From UHGV virus genome UHGV-0020019: DNA of 64,000 bases. One strand, 5' to 3'. Each line of letters opens with the position of its first letter. Within the stretch, counting starts at the first letter, position 1. The position numbers and the translations under genes were made by a program. The notes under the pieces are model-generated. The model made no database searches, was not told the DNA's origin, and worked only from the letters and a program-made list of their open reading frames with translations. The stretch is from a virus. Shown one piece after another: positions 1,446 through 64,000 of this stretch.

Positions 1446-1446
1446 C

Positions 1447-2562: not shown

Positions 2563-2605
2563 TTAGTTATATATTGTTTTTGTGTAGAAGTTAGTTATGG
2601 AGAGT

Positions 2606-2639: not shown

Positions 2640-2688
2640 GTTATCTTAGGAAAAATATTAGGTTATTGCCTACACCTTATTATATATA

Positions 2689-2696
2689 TACTTTTG
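2689..2696 (+). promoter_or_regulatory. Bacteroidetes-type -7 promoter element TAnnTTTG ('tacttttg') upstream of terL
   Basis: Exact TAnnTTTG 22 nt upstream of the ATG at 2718. A weak TTG/'TATTG' -33-like element lies ~20 nt further upstream. Confidence 0.4.
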
Positions 2697-2717
2697 CTGA
2701 AATAAGAGTAGAAGTAT

Positions 2718-31030: not shown

Positions 31031-31068
31031 ATAAGTGGAAGGCTACTTTAGCTTTCCACTTATTTTTT
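31031..31068. terminator. bidirectional rho-independent terminator between the convergent fibre operon (+) and the 2450-aa giant gene (-)
   Basis: 'ataagtggaa' (31031-31040) pairs with 'ttccacttat' (31054-31063), with an inner 'gct/agc' extension, giving a stem of about 13 bp. It is flanked by 'aaaaa' upstream and 'tttttt' downstream. It abuts the stop codon of the minus-strand gene. Confidence 0.55.
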
Positions 31069-37000: not shown

Positions 37001-38419
37001 ATTAGGATTATAAGCTACCTTATAAGGACTGCTTCCAATCTTCTCATATTGCTTCTGTTCATTTTCATCGAGAGTTCCAAACTGTTCAGCTCTAGTCCAG
37101 TACTGAGGATTAAGTGTCATCCAGTCAATACCAAATGCTCCCTTAATATCACTACCATCAGGATTCTTTCCCATATTATGAAGAGTGGTATAATCTACCT
37201 GCATCTTATGGACAGAATGGAATGCTCCTTCACTATCTTTATAATGAAGACCTCCTTGTTTATCTCTTATGATTTTAGTCTTGTTAGGATCAAGAACATT
37301 ACCTTTATCATCTACCATTACAATAGGCTTTTCTGCATAAGCATCCTGACCTGCTCTATATAATTCTGCAATACCATTCAATTTATCAGCAGAATAACTC
37401 ATAGCAGAAATACCTACATCTTTAGCAAATAAACCAAATTTTTTAAGGCTGCCTTGATGCTCTTTGATATACCTCTTAGCTTCATTATTTAAAGCTGAAG
37501 CTGCCATATCAGGTGACATGTTAGCTTCATATACTTTCTTTTTAGCAAGTATCTGACGCATATCATCAATGCTAAAGTTCTTCATCTCTGAAGTAATCTG
37601 GTTTTCAGAACCATTGCCATAATGAGAGGCAAACTCAGATATACCCATATTGGTCATACCATTCTTATCTTTATAGCTTCCAGGAGTAATAGCCTGTACA
37701 AAAGCTTCCTTTACCTGTTTATCACTAAGTCCTGTAATATATGGATCATTAAGATAAGTTTGAGATACCTGATAACCTAAGTTCTTTGCATGATTATCTA
37801 CATCATCATTATAGATTTTTTCAAGAATCCTTTGATTTTTATCAAAGGCTAATTTTCTTCCTGATTCCTCACTACCTGCAAAAGACTGAGGAGCACTAGC
37901 TGCTTGCATGGAGACTCCTAGAGGCATGAAAGCCCCCTGTCCACTATTCATGTGAACTGTTTCCCTAGCTTTTATGTCTTTGTTCCATTTATCTTCAAAT
38001 TCTTTAGGAGTAAGATAATTACTCTCCATAAGTTTAAGCTTAGCATCAGTAGAAAGCTGATTATACTTTTCAAAATCAGCTCCTAAGCCTTTATTGTTGT
38101 CTCTAGTACCATCAGCATTAATAGGACTATATAATTTAGTAAATTCAGTGTTGACTATATCATCCTTATATAAGGTGTTACGCACATCTATATCTGGTAT
38201 AGCTTTGAATTTCTCAATACCATACTTATCAATAAATTGCTTGTTTGAATAGAGATTATTGATATACACAGGATCATACCCATGCTGTGAAATCAAATCC
38301 CTATTCTTATTTATAAAACTATCATATTGAGCTTTTGAAAGACTTTTTAGTCCTTGTAAGCCTCGTAATCCTTGCAGTTTATCTATTGACATAACTTCTA
38401 TATTAATTTTTATTTGCAA
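31067..38419 (-). CDS. giant virion/cargo-type protein (2450 aa), function unknown
   Basis: Uninterrupted 7.35-kb ORF. Long coiled-coil, K/E-rich segments (e.g. 'REKEEKKKKEEEKKRAEDEAKKAAEKK'). Gly-rich hydrophobic tape-measure-like stretch 'FGIGTVGKFLSTASKVGKLARGFGKVLDTTGKLLTAETKVGQVAQGTAGALGIAYAY'. The track start is a TTG; the first ATG (MSIDKLQGL) lies 27 nt downstream near 38392 and is the more likely start. Confidence 0.7.
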   Translation of the reverse strand: MQIKINIEVMSIDKLQGLRGLQGLKSLSKAQYDSFINKNRDLISQHGYDPVYINNLYSNKQFIDKYGIEKFKAIPDIDVRNTLYKDDIVNTEFTKLYSPINADGTRDNNKGLGADFEKYNQLSTDAKLKLMESNYLTPKEFEDKWNKDIKARETVHMNSGQGAFMPLGVSMQAASAPQSFAGSEESGRKLAFDKNQRILEKIYNDDVDNHAKNLGYQVSQTYLNDPYITGLSDKQVKEAFVQAITPGSYKDKNGMTNMGISEFASHYGNGSENQITSEMKNFSIDDMRQILAKKKVYEANMSPDMAASALNNEAKRYIKEHQGSLKKFGLFAKDVGISAMSYSADKLNGIAELYRAGQDAYAEKPIVMVDDKGNVLDPNKTKIIRDKQGGLHYKDSEGAFHSVHKMQVDYTTLHNMGKNPDGSDIKGAFGIDWMTLNPQYWTRAEQFGTLDENEQKQYEKIGSSPYKVAYNPNEDSDLWYESFKMMSFGLADASAQVIPFGIGTVGKFLSTASKVGKLARGFGKVLDTTGKLLTAETKVGQVAQGTAGALGIAYAYNRGTFQETLQQNLANAEEAAMTASRNDIYNQYNTDKNYKASVDRLIKARAAGLKAEYIAQMHRDGGMQIADEKALDKMLHAKAQEAVLGELVQNRIKERMSSKEYANLQQKAIDGAGDAAFNTFWPEAIKYGFVNTMGYRKFLYTNPAGLSKKMSTTLKGLKEVTTAEGRKRLTTDISKFLTRADKWKEFGKTLGSQAWGGFWTNGTDDMQVDAAERINEDSFNRYLHSYQNGEALANTYGFADGMYSYIKGLQNSMGQETTWNAGTVGALGSIVNFTPNFANLARLATKEGRESYKNNFRREIERDENGNPLKNEDGSVKYKDLGKWNDWRGQMNYFIQNGVLNTYYGKKQTERDLRSHADYVNNLLDEYNDFVDIEHLIASNIASENVESLGDQKTIDFIKALHAVNTLDKLGEDSNDPTTMSSVVQNAKTLIEKASQLNLEEGKNPFSEEEISNLLSQYYASHPDIEQDEYTSQKALYEIAQNAQKLQKASEAFNKAEDEIQKIEKNNGISISPEVRTKMKVQQALNGHWEERREKMQSEIDDSSSMDTPKDARINIASVGGVKNAQSLVKVYDKQKAEIEKELEEQRKKTESLDKEYIKAIDESKQARREGNSDAILTAQNKQKDTKAKLDASKEQESYLEDLIYRTSIKSNELQFSMRNLETDAFKDTKDKVLTADEIFSLDPVTRARIMKAENRELYSKEQQREIEKLEKELLMKDADALQKVQDIALLTQRIDANQDAYSRMARNPEAAAVELEAQRAQAAEAAYKLINQRNAETIVDYINEFDKGMKGHTDITEEAKNQFVFKTLRKLNSTLLDTIDEDTLLPQYQQQVADAKEWGKTVDDIMAVISQSDRDDTWKENTLKNIDTIVENSNNKSEILDSLEKVIDDVNNPDATSSLEYVLNGLENLGYQRNASIVEARKERLQREKEEKKKKEEEKKRAEDEAKKAAEKKTNENIPTKEGLNESSLEDVPFDFSDEKEGKDEEKAIDKIKSPQVIEEEDLQQTDDSIKNANSLMDDDLNNGSIDMGDMWYYTTESPKKGKLLVAKEDNKISFKVDGKDTSIEITPEEYETAKEEQKNRKNIPFIADSLEKIDGDWYFNGNFAGDKDKAQVKAKKGFNIDKAIERQQAANEADLAAKGIDTGNKNLFDNGDSVQGKSETIEEQLEDITSTDKEVHSSDDNVDVAELNGIGQHNIETSVTTLSGNAMSEYNPTVLQNDGIIERKKGSETNDNMNQYYSWMNAAGVKLQNIIDHELAKIIRRNPNAKVRFMAVKPEHNATNDVAMQSHLMLVLDYDNNINKGITAIHDDTNGGVIESNGKKYLIIGTAGYGNRNASKLALYDMLWNPYISEGLNLKKQRKQFFDAHPSERFYVNENLSTEIVPASLIPGYIVRQTENDNNSEFRSVMELLSDTARNPMHYDLDSVAWGIQEMSKFLVVGTSLDKVMIPRDPMGNLGSAFVLMPASNGKMVPSYLKVLKYNEMRDGSLKDKINTLLQEVTSPNYKTRLNAVIGLSKIFYFDKEGDTILLRKNRDEISLVHDGKVQKTFVLNDNFDRAEFMKNIQDMNPRINITASVLRDIPTLMEYDEAGALMTDAALFGTVGSSYSIYGLDGEGKRIKPESPTNDIPKSSNNSDFKNGDKSQVIFKHQYYREVNGVFSLNGEIVTDEATLKQLRYNKMLLDNQLSPSMTQGVWDYFILSEGETPRAIKVNRNTKEVKESSEEQARELIKKINEKEAKKLREQKAKEVIEETSKVKNVDLGEDILTVDPETGEIIQAEDSSSSTITEESTDEKTLLTKEKTSNKDDYTHTSSEALDNSEHKAATQKFSDLIKNKKYMLRVMKLVRNKWKDAPKKIADLEKFLKDKNVEVDAIGTSENDIEAWIRTIEDCR

Positions 38420-49365: not shown

Positions 49366-52300
49366 TTATCTATTAGAAGGTGAAGCTTCAAATATCTTAA
49401 AGATAGCATCATCTTCATCCATCCTCTGCATCTGTTCCCAATCCTTAAAGAATGGCATATTGTATTTTACCATATTTCTCCAATACTTGTTTTCTCCTTT
49501 ATGGTCTCCTGATTTAATATCTGTAACAATATCACCATTGGTAAGACCATAGAAAGTATAGAGTAGGGAGTTCATAGTATTCAATGATGCCATAGGAGAA
49601 TTAAGTACTGTCAACCAGTTAGAGATATTCTTAGGGTGAGGCATTGAAGCTTCAGTATCAAGAATAGCTCTTTTTGTCTGATATATCCACCATCTTCTCC
49701 AAAATTCTCTCTTATGTTTATCTGGATCTCCAAGGGCAAAACCAAGACCTAATAGACAAATGTACATAAGCATTTCTGCTCTTACTCTCTTAATATTATA
49801 CTTCTGCATATCATCAAGATTATGCCATTGTGCCTGAGACCTAAACATAAAGGTATAGAAGTCTTTCATAAAAAGTCCAATAGCATCTAACTTCTGACCA
49901 CTATTCCAAGTATCTTTGGTATCATCATTGGTAAGACCTTTGTATAAACTATACCAATATCCTTCTCTATCTTCTCCAAGAGAAGCATCAAAGTGTCTCT
50001 TCCTAAACCTTCTGGAATAATGCTCAATCATCCATTGACGAAAATTCATAATACCACGTCCCCACCATTTTTGATGTAATAGTCCTTTATCCTCTTCATT
50101 CATGGCACCATGAGTAGACTGGTTAGCATAACGAAGTTTCTTTCTTACTTTATCAATAAAAGCATCTGTTATAGCATTTCCATCAAGGTCTGTTACTCCA
50201 GACTTTAGGTGAAGTTCAGAGTTACCATCCTGTTTATTAACTATTTCAAAGGCATCATATAAGCTTATCTTCTTTCCATTTAATAATACTTTCTGATTAT
50301 GAAGAACACCATACATGTTTACATAATGAATAAGATACTCACCAGAAGAATAGCCAATGAATGAACAATCATGAGAGATTAATTGTCGGAACATACTTTT
50401 ATAGTATTTAGTATGGCTCTTTTCAGAGAAGTTTTCCTGAAGAGGGTCAAACAGTTCTCTCATAAGTACACTCTTATGATTTACATTGTTAGTAAGTAAC
50501 TCTGCCAGTTCTCCTCCAACACCTGCACTACCAAATAGTTTAGTATGTGCCCAAGCATAATCCTTGAAGTTGTAAAATTCACCAGCACCAGCTTCAATCA
50601 TCATCTGAAATTCACCCATAAGGTAATTGGCAACAGCACCTTTGACATTAGTTGCCAAGCCTTTAAATGAAGTATAGGCAATGATATTACTGAACATCTT
50701 AGCCCAAGTCTTGTTTTCATTAGGGTCTCTGTTTTGTCCATAGATATGCTGAGCAATGAAACCTTCTATAAGTTCTGTAGTATTGGTATTTTTCCCTCTT
50801 TTCCACAAATCCTTGAATACTCTTATCTCTTTATTCTGTATCACATCACCTTTTGGGTCTTTATCTCTAGCACTCTGATTTTTCACAAAGTCACCAATAA
50901 ATTCAACAACCTGTGCTATCTGACTCATAGAATCATAATTAATAGCTGTTCCTGCAAGGGCTGCAATACCAGTTGAGAAGTTTTTAAGAAGTTCTCCTTC
51001 TTCAACTTTGTTGACAAAGAAAATAGGAATTTGTCTTAATGGAGTGTTATCAAAAGCACCTTCTGTAATCTGATATTCATCACCATCAATAATACCATTC
51101 ATATTATAGTTTTCATCATCTTCCCTTATTTTATAGAAGTTCTCAGCTTTATTTCTTACAGCTTTAGCTACATCCTTGAAGTTCTTAGCATCATGCATGG
51201 CATCAAGGAATTTACGTCTTATTTGTGGTGGAAGATATTGATGTTGTGCATAGGCTGGTAGAAGAGAGCCAATCTCACCTTTAAGTTGCATCATAGTATC
51301 ATAGTATTCAATTTGTTCCTGAGTCCAATCTTTCTGAAAGTTATCCCTCTTTCTATAACTATCATTAGGTACCCTTTCTGTTCTACCATTTTTACCATTA
51401 GTATTATCTACAACTCTATCTTCTGTATTCAGGTCTTCCCAGTCTTCAATAGCCTGTTTTAAATCAAAACCTCGAAAACCTTGACTATAGAGAGACTTAA
51501 TCTTTGCTGATCTTGCTGCTTTATATAATTTCCAATCTATATCACTAACTATATGACCATCATCCTCATACATAAATTCAGAATTATGTCCAGCTTTATG
51601 GAGTTTATCTGTAGCTCGACGAATCCTAAGAGATATACTATTCATAGCTGCATCCCTTGAATCCTGAGCATTCCTAATGACAGAACCCATAGCACCAATG
51701 ATAGGATTAGATGCTCTACCTATGCTATATAACCAGTCAAATTTAGTAGAGTCTGTAGTAGCCATTCTGATAGCATTGATCATAGACTGACCATCAGGAG
51801 TAGTGTTTCCAACAATTTCTATCATAAGGTTGGTCATAGTACTCTCTGTAAGATTATCGAGCATATTTTCCTTTTTATCAAAGAACTCTTTCAAGTCTTT
51901 AGCAGTCTGACGAATATTATCAATGTCTGTTTTGGCAATGGACTCATCAATGGTAAGATTCTCATCTGCCAAAGCTGATACCAATGGATAATATTGCTCT
52001 TTAAGGGATTTAATATCCTGTAGAATCTTAGCAGTACCAAAGGCTTTCTCTAATTCTGTACCCGTTTGAGGAATACCTTGAAGCATAGTATCAATATCAG
52101 CTATCTGAGAAGATGCTTCTCCTAAGAAATTTAATACTCCAGAGTAATATTTTTTACTAGATAACTCCTTCATAAGTTTATTAAGTACACCTTCAAGTCT
52201 TTTTCCTTCAGTATTATTACCTTTTTCCTTTTCAAGTTGCCTAATCTGCCTTTGAAGAGTAATAGCCGCATCTGCTGCTGCGTCAGAAAGAGTTCTAATT

Positions 52301-53262
52301 TTAGATGATGTCCTATGAATCTCATTGATGTCTATCTTATACTTCTTATTAAGCATTTGAATTTCAGCCTTAATCTTCTGTTCAGGACTATTAGTATAGA
52401 TATTGTTTTTCAATTGAGCAACCTGATTAATAAGAGCATCCATATCTATACCTTGATATTTCTTGGCATCAGTAATAGCCCTCATTAATAATCTCTGTTG
52501 TGGAACAGTAAGATTTATAGCTCCATGATTAAAGTCATTAAGGGTCTGTGCTGCATTTTCAATAGAACCAAAGGTGTTGATAACCCTTTGAACATGTGGA
52601 GAATTAGGACTTAAGGAGAATAGAATCATAGCATCCTTCTTATAAAGGTTACTAATATCTACTCCTGCAAGGTTCTTAAGATATTGTGCTAAATCAGTAT
52701 TCATAGCATTGAATACACTTTGCAGTTCTTGTGGCATAGTAGTTATATCTACACCTACATTATTAAATACCTGCTTATAAATATCCCAAGTCTGAAGATT
52801 TTTCTTAACACTATCTCCATAGGTATGTGTCCTGGAGTTCTTCTCTGAAACAATGATGTTATAGATATCACCATGTTGTACTACAATTGAAGTAAGTCCT
52901 TTATGATTATCGTTGAAATCATCAGCTTTCCTTAAAGCATCTTCTGCATTTGAGAAATCTACTCTCTTACCATTGATATCTACTGCTCCTAACTGAAGTT
53001 CTGCTGTAGAAAGATTACCAATATCTTCCTGTATAGACTTGAAGTCAAGGAACTTCAATACATCTTCTGCATTATGCTGTCCCTGACTATTCCTTTCTAT
53101 ATTAGCTTGGTCCATCTTATCTGCCATATCAGATACAGTATAGGAGGCATAGAGCCAATTAGTAAGAGGTCTATTCTTTAGTTTCTCAAGCATCTTTTTA
53201 TACATCCTTGAAGGCTCCCCATTGGGAGCCTCAGGATATAAAATACATGAACTATTACTCAT
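49366..53262 (-). CDS. giant virion/cargo-type protein (1298 aa), function unknown
   Basis: Uninterrupted 3.9-kb ORF. Its ATG lies 3 nt downstream of the stop of the 3572-aa gene, so the two are tightly coupled and co-transcribed. Helical, no recognised motif. Confidence 0.7.
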   Translation of the reverse strand: MSNSSCILYPEAPNGEPSRMYKKMLEKLKNRPLTNWLYASYTVSDMADKMDQANIERNSQGQHNAEDVLKFLDFKSIQEDIGNLSTAELQLGAVDINGKRVDFSNAEDALRKADDFNDNHKGLTSIVVQHGDIYNIIVSEKNSRTHTYGDSVKKNLQTWDIYKQVFNNVGVDITTMPQELQSVFNAMNTDLAQYLKNLAGVDISNLYKKDAMILFSLSPNSPHVQRVINTFGSIENAAQTLNDFNHGAINLTVPQQRLLMRAITDAKKYQGIDMDALINQVAQLKNNIYTNSPEQKIKAEIQMLNKKYKIDINEIHRTSSKIRTLSDAAADAAITLQRQIRQLEKEKGNNTEGKRLEGVLNKLMKELSSKKYYSGVLNFLGEASSQIADIDTMLQGIPQTGTELEKAFGTAKILQDIKSLKEQYYPLVSALADENLTIDESIAKTDIDNIRQTAKDLKEFFDKKENMLDNLTESTMTNLMIEIVGNTTPDGQSMINAIRMATTDSTKFDWLYSIGRASNPIIGAMGSVIRNAQDSRDAAMNSISLRIRRATDKLHKAGHNSEFMYEDDGHIVSDIDWKLYKAARSAKIKSLYSQGFRGFDLKQAIEDWEDLNTEDRVVDNTNGKNGRTERVPNDSYRKRDNFQKDWTQEQIEYYDTMMQLKGEIGSLLPAYAQHQYLPPQIRRKFLDAMHDAKNFKDVAKAVRNKAENFYKIREDDENYNMNGIIDGDEYQITEGAFDNTPLRQIPIFFVNKVEEGELLKNFSTGIAALAGTAINYDSMSQIAQVVEFIGDFVKNQSARDKDPKGDVIQNKEIRVFKDLWKRGKNTNTTELIEGFIAQHIYGQNRDPNENKTWAKMFSNIIAYTSFKGLATNVKGAVANYLMGEFQMMIEAGAGEFYNFKDYAWAHTKLFGSAGVGGELAELLTNNVNHKSVLMRELFDPLQENFSEKSHTKYYKSMFRQLISHDCSFIGYSSGEYLIHYVNMYGVLHNQKVLLNGKKISLYDAFEIVNKQDGNSELHLKSGVTDLDGNAITDAFIDKVRKKLRYANQSTHGAMNEEDKGLLHQKWWGRGIMNFRQWMIEHYSRRFRKRHFDASLGEDREGYWYSLYKGLTNDDTKDTWNSGQKLDAIGLFMKDFYTFMFRSQAQWHNLDDMQKYNIKRVRAEMLMYICLLGLGFALGDPDKHKREFWRRWWIYQTKRAILDTEASMPHPKNISNWLTVLNSPMASLNTMNSLLYTFYGLTNGDIVTDIKSGDHKGENKYWRNMVKYNMPFFKDWEQMQRMDEDDAIFKIFEASPSNR

Positions 53263-53265
53263 ACA

Positions 53266-56200
53266 CTAACAATATTTTTTAAACTCATTAATTGCTTCAT
53301 CAATACTTAAATCTAATCCTTTCTGTTTAAATACATTCTGTAAAAACTTACCAAAGACCTTTTCTCTACCTTTAATACTCTCAGCCTTCTGTAAAGCTTC
53401 CTCCTTACTTAATGTAGAAACCTGTTTCATAATCAAGTCTGCAAATGCTGCAAGATTCTTGATCTCTTCAGTCTTTGTAATAACCTGGCTATTAGAAGTG
53501 CCTTTTACATTAGACTCTTGAGGACTTTCTGTCTTCAAGTCAGAAGCAGAGTTATCTTCAGTAGTCTTGGTAGTATCACTCAATGGGTCTTTGATATCTA
53601 AAGTACTCATCTCTAAGTATTCACCATTGTTACCAAGAGGTTTAATTAACTCAAAAACAAGTTCTTCACCTTTATCAGAAGTAAGATGCCAAAGATAAGT
53701 ATTGTTATTCACCTTAGTCTTCATATAGGAAATACCTGCAAGATCAGCAATATCCTCAGGTCTATAGACAGTCAATCTATTATGCTTAACATCTACATTA
53801 TAGTGAGTATCCTTGCCTCCCTTTCTTGGAACTAGCTTGTTGTTTTCCCAGTTATTTCTAATAAACTGATCAATCACCAAGTCAGGAATTACCTCAGGGA
53901 AGTTCCTATATGTATCAACATAGGTGGCATTACCATTCTTACTCTTCAGCTTTTCCTTTACATAGGTAGGTACCAAAGACATGAAAGTCTTAGGAGAAAA
54001 TCCAATACCAGCTCTAAAGAAACTGTAGTTAAACAGCATCTGAGAAAGCTCTGGGTCTTCTTTATGCAAGTCAATCCAAGCACTGCGAAGTTCTTCCTTT
54101 TTCTGTTCATCCATACCAGTGATATTAATCATAAGATATGGTCTTCCAGTCTTCTTGGAAACATTCATTCTAATAGCTTGAATCAAGGCATTATCTGAAT
54201 ACTTTTCCTTGAACTTCTGTTCCATAAACCACTTAGGAAATTCTGTAGCATAACTTTTAAGATGCTTAGGATTAATCAGACCTGACTGTATCAACAGATA
54301 AGACTGATAGAAGTTAGAGAACTGATCCAAAAGTTTCTTGTCATTATACATCTTATCAGCAATATCAGCAGGAAGATTAGCCAATAGCTTTCTGAAACCA
54401 TTGCTACCAGTAGGCATATCAGAGAAAATAGCCTTTGCAATATCCACAGTTCTTGCAAACTGTTTCAATACTGGATGGTCAAAGAAGATGTCATCAATAT
54501 CAACAGGCATACTATCAACAGTGTAGAAATGAGTACCATTCTCTGTGTTAACATCAATGAACTGAGACATTTTATGCTCAATGATAAGATTATCTACAAT
54601 GAGTGGACCAACAGCACTTGATATAGAATTGAATCTTGTAGCATAAGTAGGCTTACGCATAGCATCAGTAAGACTTCTCATTTTCTGGAAAGCAAGAAGT
54701 ACTTTGTAATCAGTAGCTTCATGTTCCTCGGAAGTAAGACCTTCAACCAGTTCCTCTGTAGTAAGTTCCTCGGTATTAATCAAAGAATCATCATTGATGT
54801 TATTCTTTTCTCTATACTCAGTCAGCCATTTCTCAATGATGTTGGACAAAGATTCATAATTGGTAAGATTCTCTCTATTGAACTTGTTGAGGGTTCTTTC
54901 TATAATATCCTGGGAAAGGAAGAGAGCTGCATCCTCAAATGTCATACCCAATCTAAGCATAGTATTCAGCATACCAGCTGTAGTCATGTTAATATTCATC
55001 AAGTTCAAGATTGGATCTTTTACAGCATCTGCTGAAGCTGATACCAAAGAACCTAAAGTCTTACCAATAAGGTTACCATCTCTATCATACTTCATATCAA
55101 CCTGCATTCTTTCACCAAAGGTAGTACCTGCAATAGTGAAGGGATTTTCTCCACAGATTTCAGATACATCAAGAAAGATGTCATTACTCTCAAGAGTAGC
55201 ATGAGCTACCTTATTTACAGCAAACACACCAATCAATGATGCAGCAGCACTATTCTGCTTATAGAACTGTACCTGAGTATCAGCAAAGGTAAGGTCTTTA
55301 TCTGTATAAGAAAGGTCTTTGAGTTCATCAATAGACATTTTCTGAAGGTCAGACCACTTAATACCCTTGTTAGCAGGATTCTTATAGGCAGCAACCATAT
55401 AACCCATTTTCTTAGGAGCATCAAATCCTCCAGGATTAAGAATCTTATCAGCAGTCATCTGATTAGTGAGTACTGCATAAGTCATATCGATAATCTTGTT
55501 ATCTCTGTATGTTCTACCAGAAGTAGGAGCATCAGTATAATAAGCAACCTGTTGATATTTACCATAAAGCCACTGCATGAATTTATCAGCAGACTTCATC
55601 TTCTGAGGATTGTCGAGGAACATTCTTACCTGTTCACCAACCCAAGTATTGTTGGTCTTACCATCATGTGCCTTCTTATAGCTTTCAGTTGTTATGTTAA
55701 ATAGCTCCTTTTCAATCTCATTTTTCTTTCTTGTCTTGATAGGAATATCCTTACGCATGACATATCTCTTATCAACATCAAAGTCAGAGTCATCAATCTC
55801 AGTAAGCTCATAAGGAAGCATGATAGCATCACCAGCTTCTCTAGGCATGAAACCTACAACCTTCATTGGAGCACAAGAGTACTTATCCTCTGTAGGAATA
55901 CGGTAACTTACCATTTTAAGAAGCTCTGGATCCACAGCATTGATAGCATCTACATTAATAGTACCATCAGCATTGGAGAATTTATCAAAGAGTTCATTAG
56001 ACCAGATAGGAGCAAAGACTTCAAAGTAAGCAATACCACCTTGATTTCTCTTGAGATACTCCTTATAGGAAAGATTATCATGCTCAGAAGCATTATACTC
56101 TTCCTCAAGAGGCATAAGATTACCTTGCTTGTCATTAAATCTGATATGCAACTGAGTAGACATACCAAAGTTAGATACCTGAACAATAGGACCACCAGCA

Positions 56201-59200
56201 ATCTTCTGCTTATTTACTCTGTTCTTAATGATAGAGTTGATAAGCTGTTCAATTCTCTTAGCCTGTATTGGGTCACCTTTTGGTATTCTAAATTCACCAG
56301 TCTCCTTATCAATAGAACAAGCCTGCAAGAGGTCTATTCCATATCTAGGAGAAGACATGATTTCTCTCTGAAGAATCTTGGAAAGAGCAATATTCTGTTC
56401 CTTCTTATCTTCACTGTTGAAGTGCAACTCTGCTGCAAGATTATTAATACTTTCCTCAATGTTGGCAGCAATAGTCTTCTCATACTCTTTTCTAAATTCA
56501 TCAGCCTTTACCTTTCTGTGAGTACCATCAGGTTCTGTCCACTCATAGTAGTTATCTACTTGATTACCATTCTCGTCAGTAGTATAAAGGTCAAGGTCAG
56601 AAGGAGTAATCATTCTAATCTGAGAACCATGAGCCTGAGAATGCTCCTTAAAATGCTCAGGAACTTCTTGCTGCAAGCAGTAGTCTTCATAGGAAGCCTC
56701 ATGTACAAAGGTCTCAGTATTATAGTTCCTATAAACTCTTTCACCTGTAGCATCAGTCTCTTCCTTGAAGATTTGATTCTTCATATAGGTATAGGCAGCT
56801 TCCTCACCACCTTCCATATCTCTGAACTGGAAGATATTCATCTTACCTTGAAGACCAGACTTAATGGCAGATTCAAACTGAACAGTATCAATGCCCTTGG
56901 TAGGATTCAACTTCTCTGAATCTTCCATTACTCTATAGACAGCTCTAAGGAGATTTGGTCTGGAGAGCTTTTCACCTTTAAGGATAGCATCAGCCATAAT
57001 GAGAAGATACTCTGCATTCTTAGCCTGGAAAGGTACTTCCATAGAATGAATAGGAGCATTAGCTACACCCATATCCTTTGTAAGCTTTGAATACACAAAT
57101 GGCTTCAATGGCTGGAATGCTGTCTCCAAGTCAGTATAGTTGTACTCACCTTTCTGTAACTTCTGATAAATATCTTCTGCTTGCTTAGACCATCTACCAA
57201 AGATAAATGCTTTCTTTCTGTAAGATGAAGGAGATGAATATCCCTGAGCATCAGTAACATTAATCTTAGTATACTTACCATCCTTGCCTACAAGAGATTC
57301 CTTAAGAGCCATCATCTGAGCTTTCTGATTCTCTGGAGCAGCAGCAATTCTTCTATCAAAGACCTCTGCAATATTGGCAATGATGTTAGACTTGAAGCTG
57401 TCAAAGTCCTGTAAGATGAATGTTCTATACTTACCATCAGATACTCTGTTACCATTATAATCGGTAGCATAAATGTTACCTCTTACACCTGGAGCATGAA
57501 GCTGTGCTAAACGCTTCTGCAAGTCCTCAGTATCCTTATAGAAAGCAATATCTGTAAGAGTCAGCTGTAAGATATTCTTAGAAGCAAAAGCATCATTCCA
57601 AAGATAATTCTCTACCTGCTTTCTTACCCAGTCAGTAGCTTCCTCATCTTTCAACTCAGAAGGGTAGATACCCTTGATACTCTTAGCTGCTTCCAAAATA
57701 CCATTGTTCTCCCAGTTGTTGAGGATAGACTGAACTCTATCTTCCATGTGCTGACGGATAACTTTATCAGCAAGTTTACCAAGCTCTGCTTCTTCCTCAG
57801 CAGTAAGAGCTACTTCTCCATCTACTTTCTTCTGAAGGAGAGATGCTAATCTATTATTATCAGAAGAGATAGTATTATCTTCATTACGAAGAATATCTCT
57901 CTTGGCAATCTTGTCAGCAGTATTCTCCAGATAGTTATTCAATACAGGAAGGAAGTTAAACCTACGTCCATTGGTATCAAAGTTCTTGATGAAACCTGCA
58001 TCTTTTTTATCCATATTTCTCATTCTGACAGTCTGGATTCTGCTAAGTTCCTGCAAGAACATATTATGAAGACCATAGACAATGGAATCCTTATAGTTTG
58101 CACCTCTATAAGAATAGAACTTGATGAACTCAGATGATGGTTTGTTAGACTGCATAGGTATTCTGAACCAAGCTGGAACCATATTGGTATTATTATCAGT
58201 ACTCTCTGCAAAGTACTCAGTGATAAGGGATAAGGTATATTCTGCATCACTCATATTACGCATATAGTTATGCTTGTTGAAGTTCAACTCTACCTTATGA
58301 TCAAATACCTTACGAGCATTTTCATCCTTAGCAAGTATTCTAAGCCACTCATTTCTCCATCCTTTATCTACATCACCATTTTGGAACTTAAACCATTCTG
58401 AAGAACCATATTCATCCATAATGAAGTCTTCAAATGCCTGACCTTCCTGACGGAATTTATTCATCAGTTTAGTCATAAATGATGGTGTAATATAAGACTG
58501 ATACATCTTGCCACTGTCATAGAATGCATTGACAGCAGTATCTTCCAACTTGTCAGTAATAGGAGTAAGAAGATTCCTCAAACTACCACCAATAGAGTTC
58601 TCTGTTCCAAACTTAAATGGGTCATACTCCTTGAGAGTTCCCTTATTCTGAGACTGTAAAGCCTTATCCAAGTCCTTGACAATATAACCAAGAGATTCTG
58701 TAATCTTCTTAATGTTTTCTGCATTGACTACATCAGTAAGCATTTCCTCTGTGATGTTATAGCCAAAGCTCTTACTGATACCTAAAATGTTATCAGTAGC
58801 AGTCTTTGACATAGTATCATCCAAAGTCTTTCCTTCCTTAATAGCCTTGTCAATCTCTCTCAACTCAGTCAGAGCCTTATGAAGATTGAACTCAGAGTTC
58901 TTTCCTGTAGTCTGGTCAGAACCAAGAAGCTTAGAGTTAATCTTACCATTATTACCAAAGAGAGGATGTTCTCCAATCTTGAATAGGGCAGAGATGGACT
59001 TCATTGCTTCTGAGAGTGCAGGATGACTATTTACAGTCATGCTATAATACTTATCATCTTCAAGCAATACAATAGAATAGAGCTGGAAATGCTTAGAAAA
59101 TACTCCATAGAACTGGCTTTGGAAATCAGTCTCCTTACCACTCTTATCAGAAAGTCTTTCAATAAGCTGGGATAACCAAGGGTTCTGCTTCTGCTTATCA

Positions 59201-62200
59201 GACAATCTCTTAATCATATCATCAAGAGATAATGCTCCCTGTGTCCATCTCAAGATACTATTGACAGACTCTCTAGGATTTACCCTTTCTGCAATTCCCC
59301 ACTTACTATATACCTTGTTACCTTCTGCATCCAGGAGATAGCATTGATGAAGACCTAATCTTACCAAGGCAGACATAGAGTTAAGAACATCAATGGTTCT
59401 AGATTCAACCTGCCAATGTTCCTGCTCATCCTTTTCTCCTTCTTCTGCTGCTATATCCTGATCATTGGAATAGTCATTGAAGTTATCAAAATCTACCTTA
59501 GAGTCTTCTGTGGTAGTAAAGTTACCTCTGCTATAGTCCTTGGTAATACCAAAGCCTTCATTCATAGCAAAGATGTCTGCTGCCAGATACATAATAGCAT
59601 CCCAGTTGTCTGTAATCAGCTGAGCCTGCATCATGGTATCTGTATCCTCATAATCCATTACCTGAGGTGAGAACAGAGTTTTGGTTCTCTCAATAAGTCT
59701 ATCCAAACCTACAGTTTCTACAATCTGCTTTCTAGATGCAGACTGAAAGTCTAGGTCTGTATTGAGGGAAGGGAATAGAGTCTTTGCAAGACCTTCTTCC
59801 TTCTGAAGATTAGTAATCTCATCAGAGATAGAGTTAACTATCAGTTCTGCTGTATGACGAACTTCTGTAGCAGACAGAGAAGCACCAAGTTCCTCTAAGT
59901 CCTTGTCACCATTAAGCAGGTTGTCAATCTGCTTATTAAGCTTATCATACTCACTTAGATTAGTCTCAACTTCTTTCTTCTGAGAATCCTTAGATTCCTG
60001 AAGATACTCTTTCTCACTTGTTGCTTGAAGCACTGTGTCCATTTGATTGATAATGTTTTGATTTTCCTCAAATGAGTTCTCCATAGATAACTGTGCATCC
60101 AATTCCTTTAAATAAGGTATCTTCCAGGTAGCATCTACTGGTGTCTCATCATAGAGGTCATTAAAGTATTCATAACCTGGAAGAGAAACTTTCTGTGTTT
60201 GTTCTTCTGGGAAAGAAGGATTAGTTACTTCTGTTTCAGTTCCTTTATTATCATCAAAGACTATAACATCAGGATTCTTCACTATATATTCTGTGTTATC
60301 TGCCCACATAGTTCCCTTGTCAAGCACAATAACATCAGCTGTAGTGTTTCTTCCATTTTTTACATAGTCTCTAATATCTTTGTAGTGTTCTACTTTTGCA
60401 GTAGAAAGAATATGGAATTTGCTAACTTTAGCATAATCCCCAGTATAGTGTCTATTGATTCTATTGCCTTCTGGATGCTCTGCTGTAGGAGGTTCAGGAG
60501 ATTTATCTGTTCTACTCTTAGCATAATCAGTAGCCTCTTCTTCACTTGATGTAAAGTAGAGTGCTCCCTTAAGAGTTTCATCATAATCTACTGCTGTCTT
60601 TCCTACAGTTTCACCAAGAGTTTTAGCTTCTCTATCTTCCATTAAGGCATATCCTCGATAGATAGTAAGTGGTGATTTACCATCTTCTGAGTATAAACCA
60701 TCTACTTCCTTAGATAACTGACTTAACTGATACTGTTGAGCAGCATCATAAGAGTCTTTATCAAAATGCTTAGGCTCTGCTACTTCATGGTCAACCATAA
60801 ATACAACTTGAGGATTACCATGATTCTTTGCAATATTATCATGGTCATACTCCATATTGTAATCCATAGTTGCAGCAGTATGGAAACCTAAAGTCTTCTT
60901 ATAGATAGCCTGTAATGGCTGCTTTGCACTCATGTAGGCATCAAGATGGGTAGCACCTTCTTCCTTAACCATATCTTTAATAGCATAAAGGAAACCTTTA
61001 TTAGTACTAGGGCTAAGAGAGAATACACTTATCAAATTGCCATCAGGTTCTATAGCAAATCCACATAAACCATCTTCTGTAATAAAGCATTTTGCATTAG
61101 AATAATTATCATGTAAATCTACTAATTCTCCATTAGGAAGATAGATTCTTACCATCTCAAATATATCATGGAATAATTTTCCATCTACTCTTCCTACATT
61201 AAAAGTGCCTACACTATTATCTTTGTTTGTATGGGTTAAATGAGATTGGACGCCATGCCAGCTACCATTGCTGTTGGCTCCCAAGAGTCCTCCCAGAATC
61301 CCTCCGATTCTTTCTTTATCCTCGTCATTAAGTTCCCTTTCTCTGAGCTGAAAGCTGGATACTCCTTTTTCAGAAAATTTACGGCTTCCTTCTTGAACTC
61401 TTCTAAACTCATCTGTTGTTTTGTATTCTTCTGTTCCATTTTCTTTTGAATTTTTATTTTCAGAACGTGAATTACTTGAACTTATTGTATTATCTTTGAT
61501 ATTTTTATCAAGATGTAAAGGAGAGCCTTCTTTCTTGACATTGTTACTAATAATGGTAACAGTATCTGTAGCTCTTGATACACCAACATATTCAAGCTGC
61601 TGCTTGATATTAGCTACTTGATCAGGTTGAGTATTCTTTACTTCTACATCTACATCACTAAGGTCTCCTAAATCAACTTCTTCAGAACTCTTTAACTCTG
61701 CATTGGCTGCATCATTTCTAGTCTCTTCTCCAAGGTCAACCATCTCCATAGCATTAGCAGCATTGTTGTCACTCATAGAAGCCCTAGATACATCTACATC
61801 ATCCATCAGTACATGGGTAAAAGTAGAACCTTGTGACTTATGAATGGTAAGAGCATAGCCAAAGTCAATAGTCTTAGCCTGTAAAAGGTTATGGCTATTA
61901 TCTTCAATGTTATCATTGACAAAGAGGAAAGAATCAATAGCATTAATCTTAGCATAGACTGCTGCCTTAGCTTCTCTACCATAAGCTCTTCTAGCTTCAT
62001 TCCATAATCTCTTCTTCTCATTGGCAAGAATCATGGCACTCTGTCTATTCTGGGCATTGTTCTTAATGTCCATGAAGTTGAATGTATCTATATTACCTAA
62101 TGAGTCTTCAAGAGTAATAGGAACAGCCTGCATCACTACAGGAGTACCATTATCTAATCTGGTCTGTACTGTAGTAGGTCTGCCTACCTGAGTTACTTTG

Positions 62201-63984
62201 TATGATTCAGAATTAATGAATCTATAACTCTTAGTTCTCCATTCATATCCCCAGTTAGCATAACCTGTCATAGGCTCACCTACATGTGGAATAGGAGAGT
62301 CATAACCCAAAAGTTCTCTTACCTGATTATTGTAAGCAGTTACAGCCTTGTTGGTATAAGCTAGGATTCTAAAGTAATTAGGATTCTGCTTCAAGCCTTT
62401 AACATACTTATCAATAACTTCATTGATAGCATCTTGATGCTGAGGAGCAATATATGCAACACCCTCACCTTTACTATTGAATGATGATATCCTAGACAAA
62501 GGTTCTCCATTACGGATAGCTGTAGCTTCCTTAAGGATAGCATTGTCATCTGTTCTCTCTACTTGGGTAAGACGGATGACTTTACCTTCACCATTTCTAA
62601 AGACCTTAGAGATTTTATCCTCATTGACAGGAGCCAGCTGAGCTTCATCACCTACATAGATAATCTTAAGATCCATTTTCTTGGCAATATCATTAAGGAT
62701 TTTATAATTCTCCTCATTGATCATAGAAGCTTCATCGATAATAATGGTAGTTCCTGGCATGATGTCTACATCCTTCAAGACATTTACCAAGTTTCTAGCA
62801 TTATAAGATTTGCTTGAATCTACTTCTACATTGATACCAAACACCTTATTTAATGTAGATGCCTTGAAGCCAGCCTTAGATACTCTGTCATTAAGTACTG
62901 CTGCTGCCTTATTGGTTGTAGCACAGAACATCACAGGTCTATTCTGCTTCTGTCCTTTCTTAGCAATCATCTCCATAAGAGAAGTCTTACCAGTACCGGC
63001 ATAGCCACTAAGAGTCATAGATGTCTCATTGGACTTCATGAATCTATCCATCTCATTGAGAGCATCTATCTGCTGAGCATTTGGCTTGAATGGAGCTTTG
63101 ACAGTAGTACCATCTGCAAATGTAAAGTCTTGAGGCACAGCTTTTCCACTGTGTTTATTATCTTCTGGTACATTGTTTACCAAATCATAATCAGCACTTT
63201 CCTGCTCAATAAGAGACAGCTCATCCTTAAGTTCCTTGCCAGATATAGTACTAACAAACTCACCTGTCTTTGCATAATCTGCAATGTTGTTGTTTGTCTT
63301 AGAGAATGTTCCTATATTATCTGTTGCTGACTTAATCTGATTAGGATTATGAACAACATATATAGTTTGATTCTCTTTCTTATTATCATCAAAACCAGTA
63401 AGGACTATACCATTTTCAGAACCCTTTCTTTTAGATGACTTATTTACTATCTCTCTATAAGAAGTTCCTTGCTTGTGCAAGTCTTCCTTAGTACCATGAA
63501 ACACTTCTAAGTTTTTTATGTTCAAGAACAATGATAACTTGGCTTTTCTACTAGTTAAGAAATTATCCTCACTACCAGGCACAACATTATCTGTGGTAAA
63601 GAATATGGCGTTCTTAGTACCACCTGTCTTTGAGAAGAAATTATCGAACTCTGTGCTAAACTCAGACAGATTTTCATTATCAGTATAATGATAGACAACC
63701 AAAGGTTCTCCATTTTCATCTACTACTTTAGAAACATCTGAAGAATATGCTGGAGTGTAATTAGCCTCAATATCTGATGATTTAATATTACCACTTAATT
63801 TAGCTGTATCTTTAATAACAGATATTTGAGAATCATTAGAATCCCCATAATTTTTCAACAAAGAGTCTTCTGTAATTTCAATTAATCTAGGAGAATACTC
63901 TTTTGTAATGACAGCTTCCTTATATTCTTTATTACCTACATTGAATGTATTTCCATTGGTAGAAATAAATTCAGTTTGAGGCAT
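53266..63984 (-). CDS. giant multidomain (polyvalent-type) protein, 3572 aa: SF1B helicase domain, possible ADP-ribosyltransferase-like module, and RNA-polymerase-like DxDxD (DPBB) region
   Basis: Uninterrupted 10.7-kb ORF. Helicase motifs: Walker A 'GYAGTGKT', Walker B 'IIIDEASM', motif III 'IIYVGDEAQLAPV', motif V 'TIHKSQGSTF', motif VI 'YVGVSRATD'. Later 'SYRIPTEDKYSCAPMKVVGF..GDAIMLPYELTEIDDSDFDVD'. Size and architecture resemble the virion RNAP giants of crAss-like phages. Confidence 0.8.
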   Translation of the reverse strand: MPQTEFISTNGNTFNVGNKEYKEAVITKEYSPRLIEITEDSLLKNYGDSNDSQISVIKDTAKLSGNIKSSDIEANYTPAYSSDVSKVVDENGEPLVVYHYTDNENLSEFSTEFDNFFSKTGGTKNAIFFTTDNVVPGSEDNFLTSRKAKLSLFLNIKNLEVFHGTKEDLHKQGTSYREIVNKSSKRKGSENGIVLTGFDDNKKENQTIYVVHNPNQIKSATDNIGTFSKTNNNIADYAKTGEFVSTISGKELKDELSLIEQESADYDLVNNVPEDNKHSGKAVPQDFTFADGTTVKAPFKPNAQQIDALNEMDRFMKSNETSMTLSGYAGTGKTSLMEMIAKKGQKQNRPVMFCATTNKAAAVLNDRVSKAGFKASTLNKVFGINVEVDSSKSYNARNLVNVLKDVDIMPGTTIIIDEASMINEENYKILNDIAKKMDLKIIYVGDEAQLAPVNEDKISKVFRNGEGKVIRLTQVERTDDNAILKEATAIRNGEPLSRISSFNSKGEGVAYIAPQHQDAINEVIDKYVKGLKQNPNYFRILAYTNKAVTAYNNQVRELLGYDSPIPHVGEPMTGYANWGYEWRTKSYRFINSESYKVTQVGRPTTVQTRLDNGTPVVMQAVPITLEDSLGNIDTFNFMDIKNNAQNRQSAMILANEKKRLWNEARRAYGREAKAAVYAKINAIDSFLFVNDNIEDNSHNLLQAKTIDFGYALTIHKSQGSTFTHVLMDDVDVSRASMSDNNAANAMEMVDLGEETRNDAANAELKSSEEVDLGDLSDVDVEVKNTQPDQVANIKQQLEYVGVSRATDTVTIISNNVKKEGSPLHLDKNIKDNTISSSNSRSENKNSKENGTEEYKTTDEFRRVQEGSRKFSEKGVSSFQLRERELNDEDKERIGGILGGLLGANSNGSWHGVQSHLTHTNKDNSVGTFNVGRVDGKLFHDIFEMVRIYLPNGELVDLHDNYSNAKCFITEDGLCGFAIEPDGNLISVFSLSPSTNKGFLYAIKDMVKEEGATHLDAYMSAKQPLQAIYKKTLGFHTAATMDYNMEYDHDNIAKNHGNPQVVFMVDHEVAEPKHFDKDSYDAAQQYQLSQLSKEVDGLYSEDGKSPLTIYRGYALMEDREAKTLGETVGKTAVDYDETLKGALYFTSSEEEATDYAKSRTDKSPEPPTAEHPEGNRINRHYTGDYAKVSKFHILSTAKVEHYKDIRDYVKNGRNTTADVIVLDKGTMWADNTEYIVKNPDVIVFDDNKGTETEVTNPSFPEEQTQKVSLPGYEYFNDLYDETPVDATWKIPYLKELDAQLSMENSFEENQNIINQMDTVLQATSEKEYLQESKDSQKKEVETNLSEYDKLNKQIDNLLNGDKDLEELGASLSATEVRHTAELIVNSISDEITNLQKEEGLAKTLFPSLNTDLDFQSASRKQIVETVGLDRLIERTKTLFSPQVMDYEDTDTMMQAQLITDNWDAIMYLAADIFAMNEGFGITKDYSRGNFTTTEDSKVDFDNFNDYSNDQDIAAEEGEKDEQEHWQVESRTIDVLNSMSALVRLGLHQCYLLDAEGNKVYSKWGIAERVNPRESVNSILRWTQGALSLDDMIKRLSDKQKQNPWLSQLIERLSDKSGKETDFQSQFYGVFSKHFQLYSIVLLEDDKYYSMTVNSHPALSEAMKSISALFKIGEHPLFGNNGKINSKLLGSDQTTGKNSEFNLHKALTELREIDKAIKEGKTLDDTMSKTATDNILGISKSFGYNITEEMLTDVVNAENIKKITESLGYIVKDLDKALQSQNKGTLKEYDPFKFGTENSIGGSLRNLLTPITDKLEDTAVNAFYDSGKMYQSYITPSFMTKLMNKFRQEGQAFEDFIMDEYGSSEWFKFQNGDVDKGWRNEWLRILAKDENARKVFDHKVELNFNKHNYMRNMSDAEYTLSLITEYFAESTDNNTNMVPAWFRIPMQSNKPSSEFIKFYSYRGANYKDSIVYGLHNMFLQELSRIQTVRMRNMDKKDAGFIKNFDTNGRRFNFLPVLNNYLENTADKIAKRDILRNEDNTISSDNNRLASLLQKKVDGEVALTAEEEAELGKLADKVIRQHMEDRVQSILNNWENNGILEAAKSIKGIYPSELKDEEATDWVRKQVENYLWNDAFASKNILQLTLTDIAFYKDTEDLQKRLAQLHAPGVRGNIYATDYNGNRVSDGKYRTFILQDFDSFKSNIIANIAEVFDRRIAAAPENQKAQMMALKESLVGKDGKYTKINVTDAQGYSSPSSYRKKAFIFGRWSKQAEDIYQKLQKGEYNYTDLETAFQPLKPFVYSKLTKDMGVANAPIHSMEVPFQAKNAEYLLIMADAILKGEKLSRPNLLRAVYRVMEDSEKLNPTKGIDTVQFESAIKSGLQGKMNIFQFRDMEGGEEAAYTYMKNQIFKEETDATGERVYRNYNTETFVHEASYEDYCLQQEVPEHFKEHSQAHGSQIRMITPSDLDLYTTDENGNQVDNYYEWTEPDGTHRKVKADEFRKEYEKTIAANIEESINNLAAELHFNSEDKKEQNIALSKILQREIMSSPRYGIDLLQACSIDKETGEFRIPKGDPIQAKRIEQLINSIIKNRVNKQKIAGGPIVQVSNFGMSTQLHIRFNDKQGNLMPLEEEYNASEHDNLSYKEYLKRNQGGIAYFEVFAPIWSNELFDKFSNADGTINVDAINAVDPELLKMVSYRIPTEDKYSCAPMKVVGFMPREAGDAIMLPYELTEIDDSDFDVDKRYVMRKDIPIKTRKKNEIEKELFNITTESYKKAHDGKTNNTWVGEQVRMFLDNPQKMKSADKFMQWLYGKYQQVAYYTDAPTSGRTYRDNKIIDMTYAVLTNQMTADKILNPGGFDAPKKMGYMVAAYKNPANKGIKWSDLQKMSIDELKDLSYTDKDLTFADTQVQFYKQNSAAASLIGVFAVNKVAHATLESNDIFLDVSEICGENPFTIAGTTFGERMQVDMKYDRDGNLIGKTLGSLVSASADAVKDPILNLMNINMTTAGMLNTMLRLGMTFEDAALFLSQDIIERTLNKFNRENLTNYESLSNIIEKWLTEYREKNNINDDSLINTEELTTEELVEGLTSEEHEATDYKVLLAFQKMRSLTDAMRKPTYATRFNSISSAVGPLIVDNLIIEHKMSQFIDVNTENGTHFYTVDSMPVDIDDIFFDHPVLKQFARTVDIAKAIFSDMPTGSNGFRKLLANLPADIADKMYNDKKLLDQFSNFYQSYLLIQSGLINPKHLKSYATEFPKWFMEQKFKEKYSDNALIQAIRMNVSKKTGRPYLMINITGMDEQKKEELRSAWIDLHKEDPELSQMLFNYSFFRAGIGFSPKTFMSLVPTYVKEKLKSKNGNATYVDTYRNFPEVIPDLVIDQFIRNNWENNKLVPRKGGKDTHYNVDVKHNRLTVYRPEDIADLAGISYMKTKVNNNTYLWHLTSDKGEELVFELIKPLGNNGEYLEMSTLDIKDPLSDTTKTTEDNSASDLKTESPQESNVKGTSNSQVITKTEEIKNLAAFADLIMKQVSTLSKEEALQKAESIKGREKVFGKFLQNVFKQKGLDLSIDEAINEFKKYC
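55765..55917 (-). other. candidate RNAP catalytic double-psi-beta-barrel segment with DFDVD motif (aa 2690-2740 of the 3572-aa protein)
   Basis: 'YRIPTEDKYSCAPMKVVGFMPREAGDAIMLPYELTEIDDSDFDVDKRY' parallels beta-prime 'RQPSLH...AYNADFDGD' and QDE-1 'RSPAH...SGGDYDGD'. I checked the DFDVD codons on the DNA at 55771-55785. Confidence 0.45.
60235..60687 (-). other. possible R-S-E ADP-ribosyltransferase-like module (aa ~1100-1250 of the 3572-aa protein)
   Basis: 'LTIYRGYAL' (Arg motif as in the 'VYRR' of C3-like toxins) at aa 1108-1111. 'ALYFTSSEEE' (S-T-S-like) at aa 1143-1147, about 35 aa later. Candidate acidic motifs 'AEHPE' and 'NTEYIV' follow. The Glu motif is not canonical. Confidence 0.25.
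61540..63072 (-). other. SF1B (RecD/Pif1/Dda-like) helicase domain within the 3572-aa protein (aa ~305-815)
   Basis: All core motifs are present in the canonical order. A ~75-aa acidic insertion ('DVDVSRASMSDNNAANAMEMVDLGEETRNDAANAELKSSEEVDLGDLSDVDVEV') sits between motifs V and VI. I checked the DNA for Walker A at 62983-63006. Confidence 0.8.
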
Positions 63985-64000
63985 ATCATATATATAAGGT

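Follow-up and report, generated by a model that had tools for sequence, protein, structure and literature searches.

Introduction

Crass phages dominate the human gut virome. How the polymerase that they eject starts transcription on duplex DNA is a standing question, and the only characterised enzyme is gp66 of phage phi14:2, a virion protein that transcribes early genes and that in vitro uses single-stranded or denatured DNA efficiently and double-stranded DNA poorly or not at all (bioRxiv 10.1101/2020.03.07.982082). The closest structural relative of gp66, QDE-1 of Neurospora, needs the helicase QDE-3 and the single-stranded-DNA-binding protein RPA (bioRxiv 10.1101/2020.03.07.982082). Virions of phage crAss001 contain gp50, gp49, and gp47, which are modelled as ejected capsid cargo that needs partial unfolding (PMC10172136). 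Here we describe a giant gene on the minus strand of UHGV-0020019, the genome of an uncultivated Steigviridae-like crassvirus; the gene occupies positions 53266 to 64000 of the 64,000-nucleotide stretch that we analyzed (the window). Judged by its sequence, the product is an orthologue of gp66 and gp50 and a catalytic crAss-type virion RNA polymerase, and it carries in the same frame a superfamily 1B (SF1B) helicase and a series of predicted effector-type domains.

Virion polymerases joined to other enzymes have a precedent in the N4-type enzymes, which are fused to metallopeptidase, ADP-ribosyltransferase (ART), and other domains and are the prototype polyvalent proteins (PMC5512222). The polymerase of Roseovarius Plymouth podovirus 1, for example, carries an ART domain (Iyer et al. 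2017, PMC5512222). These proteins are large, packaged, ejected polymerases accompanied by a zincin-like peptidase, ART, and effectors, and the giant would resemble them in this and in the logic of jump-starting transcription while modifying the host. However, the N4 enzyme belongs to the T7-like single-subunit polymerases and has a fold unrelated to that of the two-barrel crass enzyme, and no SF1B helicase fused to it has been described (PMC5512222). A two-barrel virion polymerase that is fused to a large module and ejected is known from Thermus phage P23-45 (bioRxiv 10.1101/2022.12.01.518664), but there the partner is a structural tape measure and not a set of enzymes. T4 Alt and other virion-packaged ARTs likewise travel with the DNA and modify host proteins as infection begins, although Alt is a separate capsid protein from a different ART clade. 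Thus the polymerase family, SF1B helicases, the ART-PolyVal domain, the polyvalent-protein concept, and an ART on an unrelated N4-type virion polymerase are already known. Our literature searches, whose coverage was partial so that a prior depiction is possible, returned no text on a crAss-type polymerase with a fused helicase, on two cassette slots, or on the ART-fold family termed module D below, and no earlier description of an ART fused to a crass polymerase.

Results

A crAss-Type Polymerase and an SF1B Helicase in One Frame

The gene and the parts that identify it are as follows, with amino acids (aa) numbered from the ATG at 63984.

53266..64000, minus strand: visible part of the giant gene; the frame is open at the window end and the gene starts beyond it
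53266..60207, minus strand: virion RNA polymerase body, aa ~1260-3572 plus stop codon, orthologue of phi14:2 gp66 and crAss001 gp50
55771..55785, minus strand: DFDVD, aa 2734-2738, predicted Mg2+-binding catalytic motif, aligned on 1361-DFDID-1365 of gp66
61465..63099, minus strand: SF1B (Dda/RecD2-type) helicase, aa ~296-840, assigned with Pfam, PHROG, PDB, and NCBIfam

In tblastn and blastp searches the polymerase body is 53%/44% identical to its counterpart in phage cr116_1 and matches crAss001 gp50, annotated as a "putative RNA polymerase," with an E value of 9e-159. By blastp it also aligns with gp66 (E value 1e-22, aa 2434-3387 on gp66 1096-2015). A single-sequence phmmer search of PDB did not find gp66, but a profile search did: a profile built from five sequences, gp66 not among them, matches chain A of PDB entry 6VR4 with an E value of 3e-40 across gp66 residues 702-1035 and 1168-2036. 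Upstream of DFDVD lies YRIPTED at aa 2694, and SDFDVDKRYVM of the giant aligns with SDFDIDKMYVM of gp66, in which every aspartate of 1361-DFDID-1365 is essential (bioRxiv 10.1101/2020.03.07.982082). A preliminary description of this DNA, made from its letters and open reading frames (ORFs), had likened DFDVD to the DxDGD loop of crAss-like RNA polymerases, and both the alignment with DFDID and the profile match to 6VR4 bear this out. Given its homology to the solved gp66 structure, the polymerase body would adopt the fold of two double-psi beta-barrels.

The same preliminary description had recognized a complete RecD/Pif1/Dda-type helicase core on the basis of five motifs, and here too the searches agree with it. 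In Pfam the region matches AAA_30 (E value 6e-31) and UvrD_C_2, both above the cut-offs, with AAA_19 and PIF1 also matched; PHROG 325, a Dda-like helicase family, is matched with an E value of 1e-75; and further matches are to PDB entries 3upu (T4 Dda) and 3e1s (RecD2) and to the RecD2 family of NCBIfam. All five motifs are present: I (GYAGTGKT, aa 327-334), II (IIIDEASM, aa 414-421), III (VGDEAQLAPV, aa 444-453), V (TIHKSQGSTF, aa 713-722), and VI (YVGVSRATD, aa 799-807). Based on these matches, aa ~296-840 is by sequence a complete SF1B helicase with domains 1A (AAA_30/PIF1-type) and 2A (UvrD_C_2).

An acidic, low-complexity insert of ~75 aa (aa 723-798, approximately 61591-61818, minus strand) lies between helicase motifs V and VI.

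The frame that joins these parts runs from 63984 to its stop at 53266 as 3,572 uninterrupted codons, and the longest ORF in the other frames over 53266-63984 measures 292 aa. The GC content of the region is 35-38%, and since stop codons are frequent at ~35% GC, such a length is beyond chance. The ATG at 63984 encodes an internal methionine. The last 16 bases up to 64000 are in frame without a stop (PYIYD-M-PQTEF), and a relative in IMG/VR (L004), 95% identical across all 3,572 aa, contains the same PYIYD-M peptide and extends 598 codons farther upstream. In close relatives this extension measures ~580-600 codons (598 in both L004 and L020), and full-length relatives reach 3,729-4,258 aa, with one of at least 5,065 aa; a matching database protein, P0073, has 4,120 aa. 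By comparison with these relatives, the visible ORF is the window-truncated 3' ~86% of a gene of ~4,100-4,250 aa. The single 10.7-kb ORF of 3572 aa reported previously is therefore a real and uninterrupted frame, but its length and start were set by the edge of the window, as was the N-terminal position of a region then described as of unknown fold, which contains an ART-PolyVal domain at aa 89-227. Low-complexity linkers separate the modules.

Neither gp66 (2,180 aa) nor gp50 (2,412 aa) contains helicase, ART, GNAT, or kinase modules, and compared with them the giant has ~1,700 extra residues between an N-terminal leader and the polymerase body. The closest published relative is encoded by gp051 and gp049 of cr116_1 (Pamirivirus faecium, NC_055882; "VOG3903 / hypothetical protein"). 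Like the giant, gp051, annotated only as VOG3903, carries ART-PolyVal before the polymerase body; unlike the giant, cr116_1 has no helicase and no homology to modules C or D described below, and its gene is split within DFD|VD by a 215-aa ORF.

A Clade with a Constant Core

Relatives were counted in IMG/VR, which was scanned twice, and the open frames were then searched with home-built hidden Markov models of six modules. The census was not taken from a 5.8-billion-protein index, where the polymerase core retrieved 23 short fragments without Pfam annotation. A polymerase relative is present at 76 IMG/VR loci, and in 28 complete or nearly complete frames the SF1B helicase also precedes the polymerase body. 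Nine IMG datasets contributed these 28 frames, whose polymerase cores are ~52-98% identical to that of the giant. All of them preserve helicase motifs I, II, III, V, and VI, and DFD[VI]D is intact in every one of the 26 that reach the motif position. Because both sets of motifs are invariant even at ~52% core identity, both activities are probably under selection. The helicase and the polymerase body also diverge in step, with 67-70% and 66-79% protein identity, respectively. The domain combination had been called unusual and matched to no described protein; we found no text that describes it, but it is not unique, since it is common to a clade of at least 28 frames and the ART-PolyVal–polymerase fusion of cr116_1 had been published unannotated.

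The Effector-Type Modules and Their Exchange

Besides the helicase, three domains precede the polymerase body.

63304..63720, minus strand: ART-PolyVal domain, aa 89-227, cassette slot 1, Pfam PF18760
60715..61452, minus strand: GNAT-like domain (module C), aa ~845-1090, cassette slot 2a, assigned with AlphaFold2 and Foldseek
60250..60696, minus strand: second ART-fold domain (module D), aa ~1097-1245, cassette slot 2b, assigned from its predicted fold and a conserved triad

The ART-PolyVal domain matches PF18760 over the full profile (1-140 of 140) with an E value of 7.8e-13 and 49.8 bits against a cut-off of 31.2, and H99 is conserved in an alignment with eight other ART-PolyVal domains. This domain, which is better supported than module D, and the GNAT-like domain had both been missed in the preliminary description, whose stretch of about 1,500 aa of helical sequence consists of the GNAT-like domain and the N-terminal half of the polymerase body. 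A reading of that stretch as a linker was rejected, as it is homologous to gp66, gp50, and the cr116_1 polymerase. The proposed relation to polyvalent proteins, in contrast, is upheld by the PolyVal domain PF18760 and by the presence of ART, helicase, GNAT-like, ART-like, and polymerase domains in one frame next to cargo and structural genes.

For modules C and D the sequence libraries are silent and structure prediction alone was informative. Module C has ~70 matches in other proteins, 52 of them longer than 200 aa, and many of these proteins carry domains of the PolyVal type in Pfam (ART-PolyVal, Kinase-PolyVal, MuF_C, and SprT-like). An AlphaFold2 model built from 28 sequences has a predicted local distance difference test score (pLDDT) of 83.5, and the top 50 matches in a Foldseek search of PDB are all GNAT acetyltransferases (best E value 1.3e-3, probability 1.0, template modelling score ~0.5 to the target), which suggests a GNAT-like fold. 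Module D, modelled with a pLDDT of 88.3, has structural matches almost solely in the ART superfamily, including ParT, RES toxins, diphtheria toxin, exotoxin A, tankyrases, and PARPs. The fold matches of both modules are modest. Module D contains the YRG/FTSS segment (aa 1109-1147), and R1110, T1145, and E1232 are invariant in 20 sequences of 29-85% identity, the residues being compared in sequence and not in space. Thus the predicted fold and the invariant R/T/E triad favor the earlier comparison of a YRG...FTSS...acidic segment with R-S-E ARTs, but no ART profile matches it. Since no curated ART sequence family matches, we treat module D as an unclassified ART-fold family; in a HMMER search of 1.84 billion representative proteins it comprises only 23 clusters.

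In the relatives, these modules occupy two slots whose contents differ. The slot before the helicase holds Kinase-PolyVal (at most loci) or ART-PolyVal or is empty. The slot after it is filled by the GNAT-like module, sometimes joined by the ART-like module, or else by NADAR, a second kinase, or sequence left unassigned. In the DNA, sharp breakpoints recur at aa ~245, ~835, ~1087, and ~1246, and cassettes swap even between genomes that are ~92-96% identical in DNA. Module D, for instance, is cleanly missing from L006, L009, and L011, and in L009 the flanks are 95-96% identical. In three loci (L005, L007, and L008) the helicase is followed by an extra cassette of 417 nt, which is bounded by a 16-nt overlap and is not found in the window; in L017 an extra cassette begins at the same offset with another downstream breakpoint and no overlap.

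This extra cassette encodes ~139 aa between the helicase and the GNAT-like module and has no Pfam match (L005:8097-8512; P0073 aa 1224-1361).

The Leader, a Possible Upstream Peptidase, and Other Arrangements

The relatives begin with a leader of ~120 aa, M-x-C-V-N-x-x-S-K-E-F...F-P-x-D-x-Y-I, which they have in common with distant loci, crAss001 gp50, and cr116_1 gp051. Because the leader is common to all, the helicase and the cassettes are insertions between leader and body rather than N-terminal additions. The leader may be a packaging or ejection signal.

The leader (L020:2573-2930) is kept across crass polymerase giants of very different length.

Most clade members also have a conserved HE[VIL][IL]H ~230 aa from the start (aa ~226-232), upstream of the portion that lies in the window. 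The region around it gives weak zincin matches, SprT-like in four of six members (best E value 3.7e-5), and also matches to M91, M35, and lethal factor (ATLF).

The modules recur elsewhere in polymerase giants. In P0076, P0089, and P0090 module D immediately precedes the polymerase body; in P0078 it is embedded in the polymerase, in the loop ahead of YRIPTE; and in P0077, a polymerase giant of 5,891 aa, it is close to the C-terminus. In P0085 it lies between C-terminal polymerase sequence and a C-terminal SF1B helicase, whereas for P0079 the blastp matches are limited to module D and the helicase, the N-terminus appearing polymerase-like by eye. The position of the same helicase type C-terminal of polymerase fragments in P0079 and P0085 suggests a recurrent association. 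A GNAT-like module lies in the polymerase loop in P0030, P0032, and P0037, and inside the polymerase in L056, at a site not mapped exactly.

Loops, Splits, and Stops in the Polymerase Gene

Just upstream of YRIPTED...DFDVD, at aa ~2625-2665 of the giant (approximately 55990-56110, minus strand), there is a variable loop from GGPIVQVSNFG to GIAYFEVF. This loop is an insertion hot spot, with GNAT-like insertions in P0030, P0032, and P0037 and an ART-like one in P0078. The 215-aa ORF that splits the cr116_1 polymerase gene within DFD|VD (...GSDFD | VDK...) is gp050 (L001:15454-16293). L050 is split at the same residue, and P0078 ends in ...TGSD. Splits within active-site codons look like the insertion of a mobile intron or endonuclease.

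In a near-identical relative (L018:10511-10513, IMGVR_UViG_3300045988_108473), a single in-frame TAA stands where the giant has AAA (K2070) and cuts the giant in two; this is either a nonsense mutation or a sequencing error. More distant polymerase genes are broken by stops of one kind each, in-frame TAG in L048 and L055 and in-frame TGA in L092, which fits the stop-codon reassignment of some crass phages. Such reassignment has already been reported in some members of the group.

Neighboring Genes and Affiliation

Two further genes belong to the transcription and cargo block.

49366..53262, minus strand: co-oriented gene downstream, encoding 1,298 aa, whose start is 4 nt past the stop of the giant; gp49/gp65 homologue
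31067..38419, minus strand: third giant gene in this block, encoding 2,450 aa; homologous to gp047 of cr116_1 and positional counterpart of crAss001 gp47

In blastp searches the 1,298-aa product is 46% identical to cr116_1 gp048 and matches crAss001 gp49 (E value 3e-53) and phi14:2 g065 (E value 1e-22); crAss001 gp49 and phi14:2 gp65 are RNA polymerase-associated virion proteins. Thus the locus resembles those of phi14:2 and crAss001 in its homologous polymerase body (PDB 6VR4), its aligned DFDxD, and its downstream gp65/gp49 homologue. The 2,450-aa product is 33% identical to cr116_1 gp047 over ~2,200 aa (blastp). We rejected this ORF as a candidate for the real polymerase, as it matches gp047 and the DFDxD protein is the giant.

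The window also contains crass-type terminase, major capsid, and portal genes. The nearest published genome is that of cr116_1 (Steigviridae, Pamirivirus), with only ~50% protein identity, and megablast against 50,697 phage records found no close DNA relative.

The terminase-like and major capsid genes are at 2.7-7.7 kb (2718-4961 and 6360-7736), and the portal gene is at 42 kb (42225-44642), past the 2,450-aa minus-strand gene. In phi14:2, unlike the window, the terminase, portal, and capsid genes are close together in that order.

Discussion

We favor, with fair though not high confidence, the hypothesis that the giant is an ejected polyvalent virion RNA polymerase whose helicase opens the template and whose cassettes are host-modifying effectors. 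Like its orthologues, it would be packaged as capsid cargo and ejected with the DNA into a Bacteroidota host, where the polymerase would transcribe early genes after entry. The helicase would travel 5'->3' along the non-template strand, its direction matching that of the polymerase, and would open the duplex and feed the polymerase a single-stranded template. The ART, GNAT, kinase, and NADAR cassettes would be exchangeable effectors, introduced at time zero, that modify the host or counter its defences. As soon as they enter, they would attach ADP-ribose, acetyl, or phosphate groups to host targets or strip off ADP-ribose signals, perhaps after being freed by the putative zincin-like peptidase in the upstream part of relatives. 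More tentatively, the fused SF1B helicase could be the missing template-opening factor of crAss-type polymerases, a counterpart to the QDE-1/QDE-3 pair, and the two slots could reflect a recombination-driven exchange of injected effectors, among closely related phages of the gut, that matches host defences. QDE-1 prefers single-stranded DNA and depends on a helicase and a single-stranded-DNA-binding protein, and the giant would unite polymerase and helicase in one protein. QDE-3, however, is a separate protein of the RecQ family (SF2, 3'->5') and not a fused SF1B enzyme, and the functional parallel is hypothetical.

Several findings weigh against this hypothesis. The helicase is absent from the wider family: in ~40 more distant crAss001-like loci (27-36% identity, 2,400-3,100 aa), none of the six modelled modules is in frame, and a fused helicase is therefore no general requirement of crass virion polymerases. 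The coupling of helicase and polymerase is purely inferred, and packaging and ejection are inferred from the orthologues gp66 and gp50. The 5' end of this copy of the gene lies outside the window, so the leader and the upstream part are known from relatives only. As for the effectors, the third catalytic position of ART-PolyVal, E or D in most homologues, aligns as Q206, in a part where the alignment is ambiguous, and with this probable glutamine the domain may be a variant or inactive. Module C has no match in sequence searches of Pfam, NCBIfam, or PDB and lacks the canonical acetyl-CoA motif Q/RxxGxG/A, the equivalent stretch being NKGFLYA; because the motif and profile membership are missing, we call it GNAT-like only. 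Module D has no Pfam ART match at E<=1, none in NCBIfam, and none by PDB profile search.

The helicase could instead be one more injected effector, mechanistically independent of the polymerase and using the fusion only as a delivery vehicle, for example for anti-restriction, for clearing host proteins off the incoming DNA, or for early replication or recombination. It does sit among accessory modules in a polyvalent array, its nearest phage relatives are stand-alone replication-module helicases of other crass phages (such as that of cr50_1, 35% identity), distant crass virion polymerases do without it, and helicases are common in polyvalent proteins (PMC5512222). Yet, unlike the flanking modules, it is never swapped or lost in the 28 frames and diverges in step with the polymerase, and the need of the polymerase family for single-stranded DNA in vitro offers a specific reason for coupling; we therefore regard independence as possible but rather unlikely. 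An explanation compatible with the favored hypothesis, rather than opposed to it, is that the giant is a precursor which the putative zincin-like peptidase, or a host or phage protease, cuts into leader, effector, helicase, and polymerase before or after ejection, so that the modules act free. The conserved HExxH with its weak SprT-like, M91, M35, and lethal-factor matches in relatives points this way, as do the low-complexity linkers between modules, the proposal of zincin-like processing as a general theme of polyvalent proteins (PMC5512222), and the suggestion of Drobysheva et al. that refolding or cleavage activates gp66 (bioRxiv 10.1101/2020.03.07.982082). Our doubts about processing stem from the N4 polymerase, which is packaged unprocessed despite its peptidase domain (PMC5512222), and from a weak peptidase assignment that concerns sequence outside the window; we hold it as a tentative addition.

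It seems improbable that the helicase is a motor that pulls the phage genome in at the ejectosome, comparable to transcription-driven entry by the T7 and N4 polymerases. SF1B helicases are, as is established, efficient translocases on single-stranded DNA, and the giant should precede the DNA into the cell (PMC10172136), but such enzymes track on single strands whereas the entering genome is duplex, and the sequence gives no hint of an association with membrane or channel. Least credible of all is that the fusion is an artefact of mis-assembly, of an unrecognised intron or stop, or of adjacent genes misread as one. Crass polymerase genes are indeed often interrupted (within DFD|VD in cr116_1 and L050, by TAA in L018, and by TAG or TGA in others). 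Nevertheless, 28 independent IMG/VR contigs, drawn from nine datasets, show the same continuous frame, as does P0073 (4,120 aa), and in the window 10.7 kb pass without a stop and the module junctions are in frame.

If the favored hypothesis holds, a clade in which an intact and invariant 5'->3' helicase is joined to the polymerase would provide a concrete and testable answer to how an ejected crass polymerase begins transcription on duplex DNA, as well as a natural construct for biochemistry. The cassette slots, which differ between genomes that are 92-96% identical, would mark sites of phage-host conflict, and the cassettes are candidate anti-defence or takeover enzymes, among them module D, an ART-fold family limited to 23 clusters among 1.84 billion representative proteins. 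The finding also carries the polyvalent-protein concept from the N4-type enzymes over to the unrelated two-barrel polymerases, and the fused helicase may explain how such polymerases obtain a single-stranded template.

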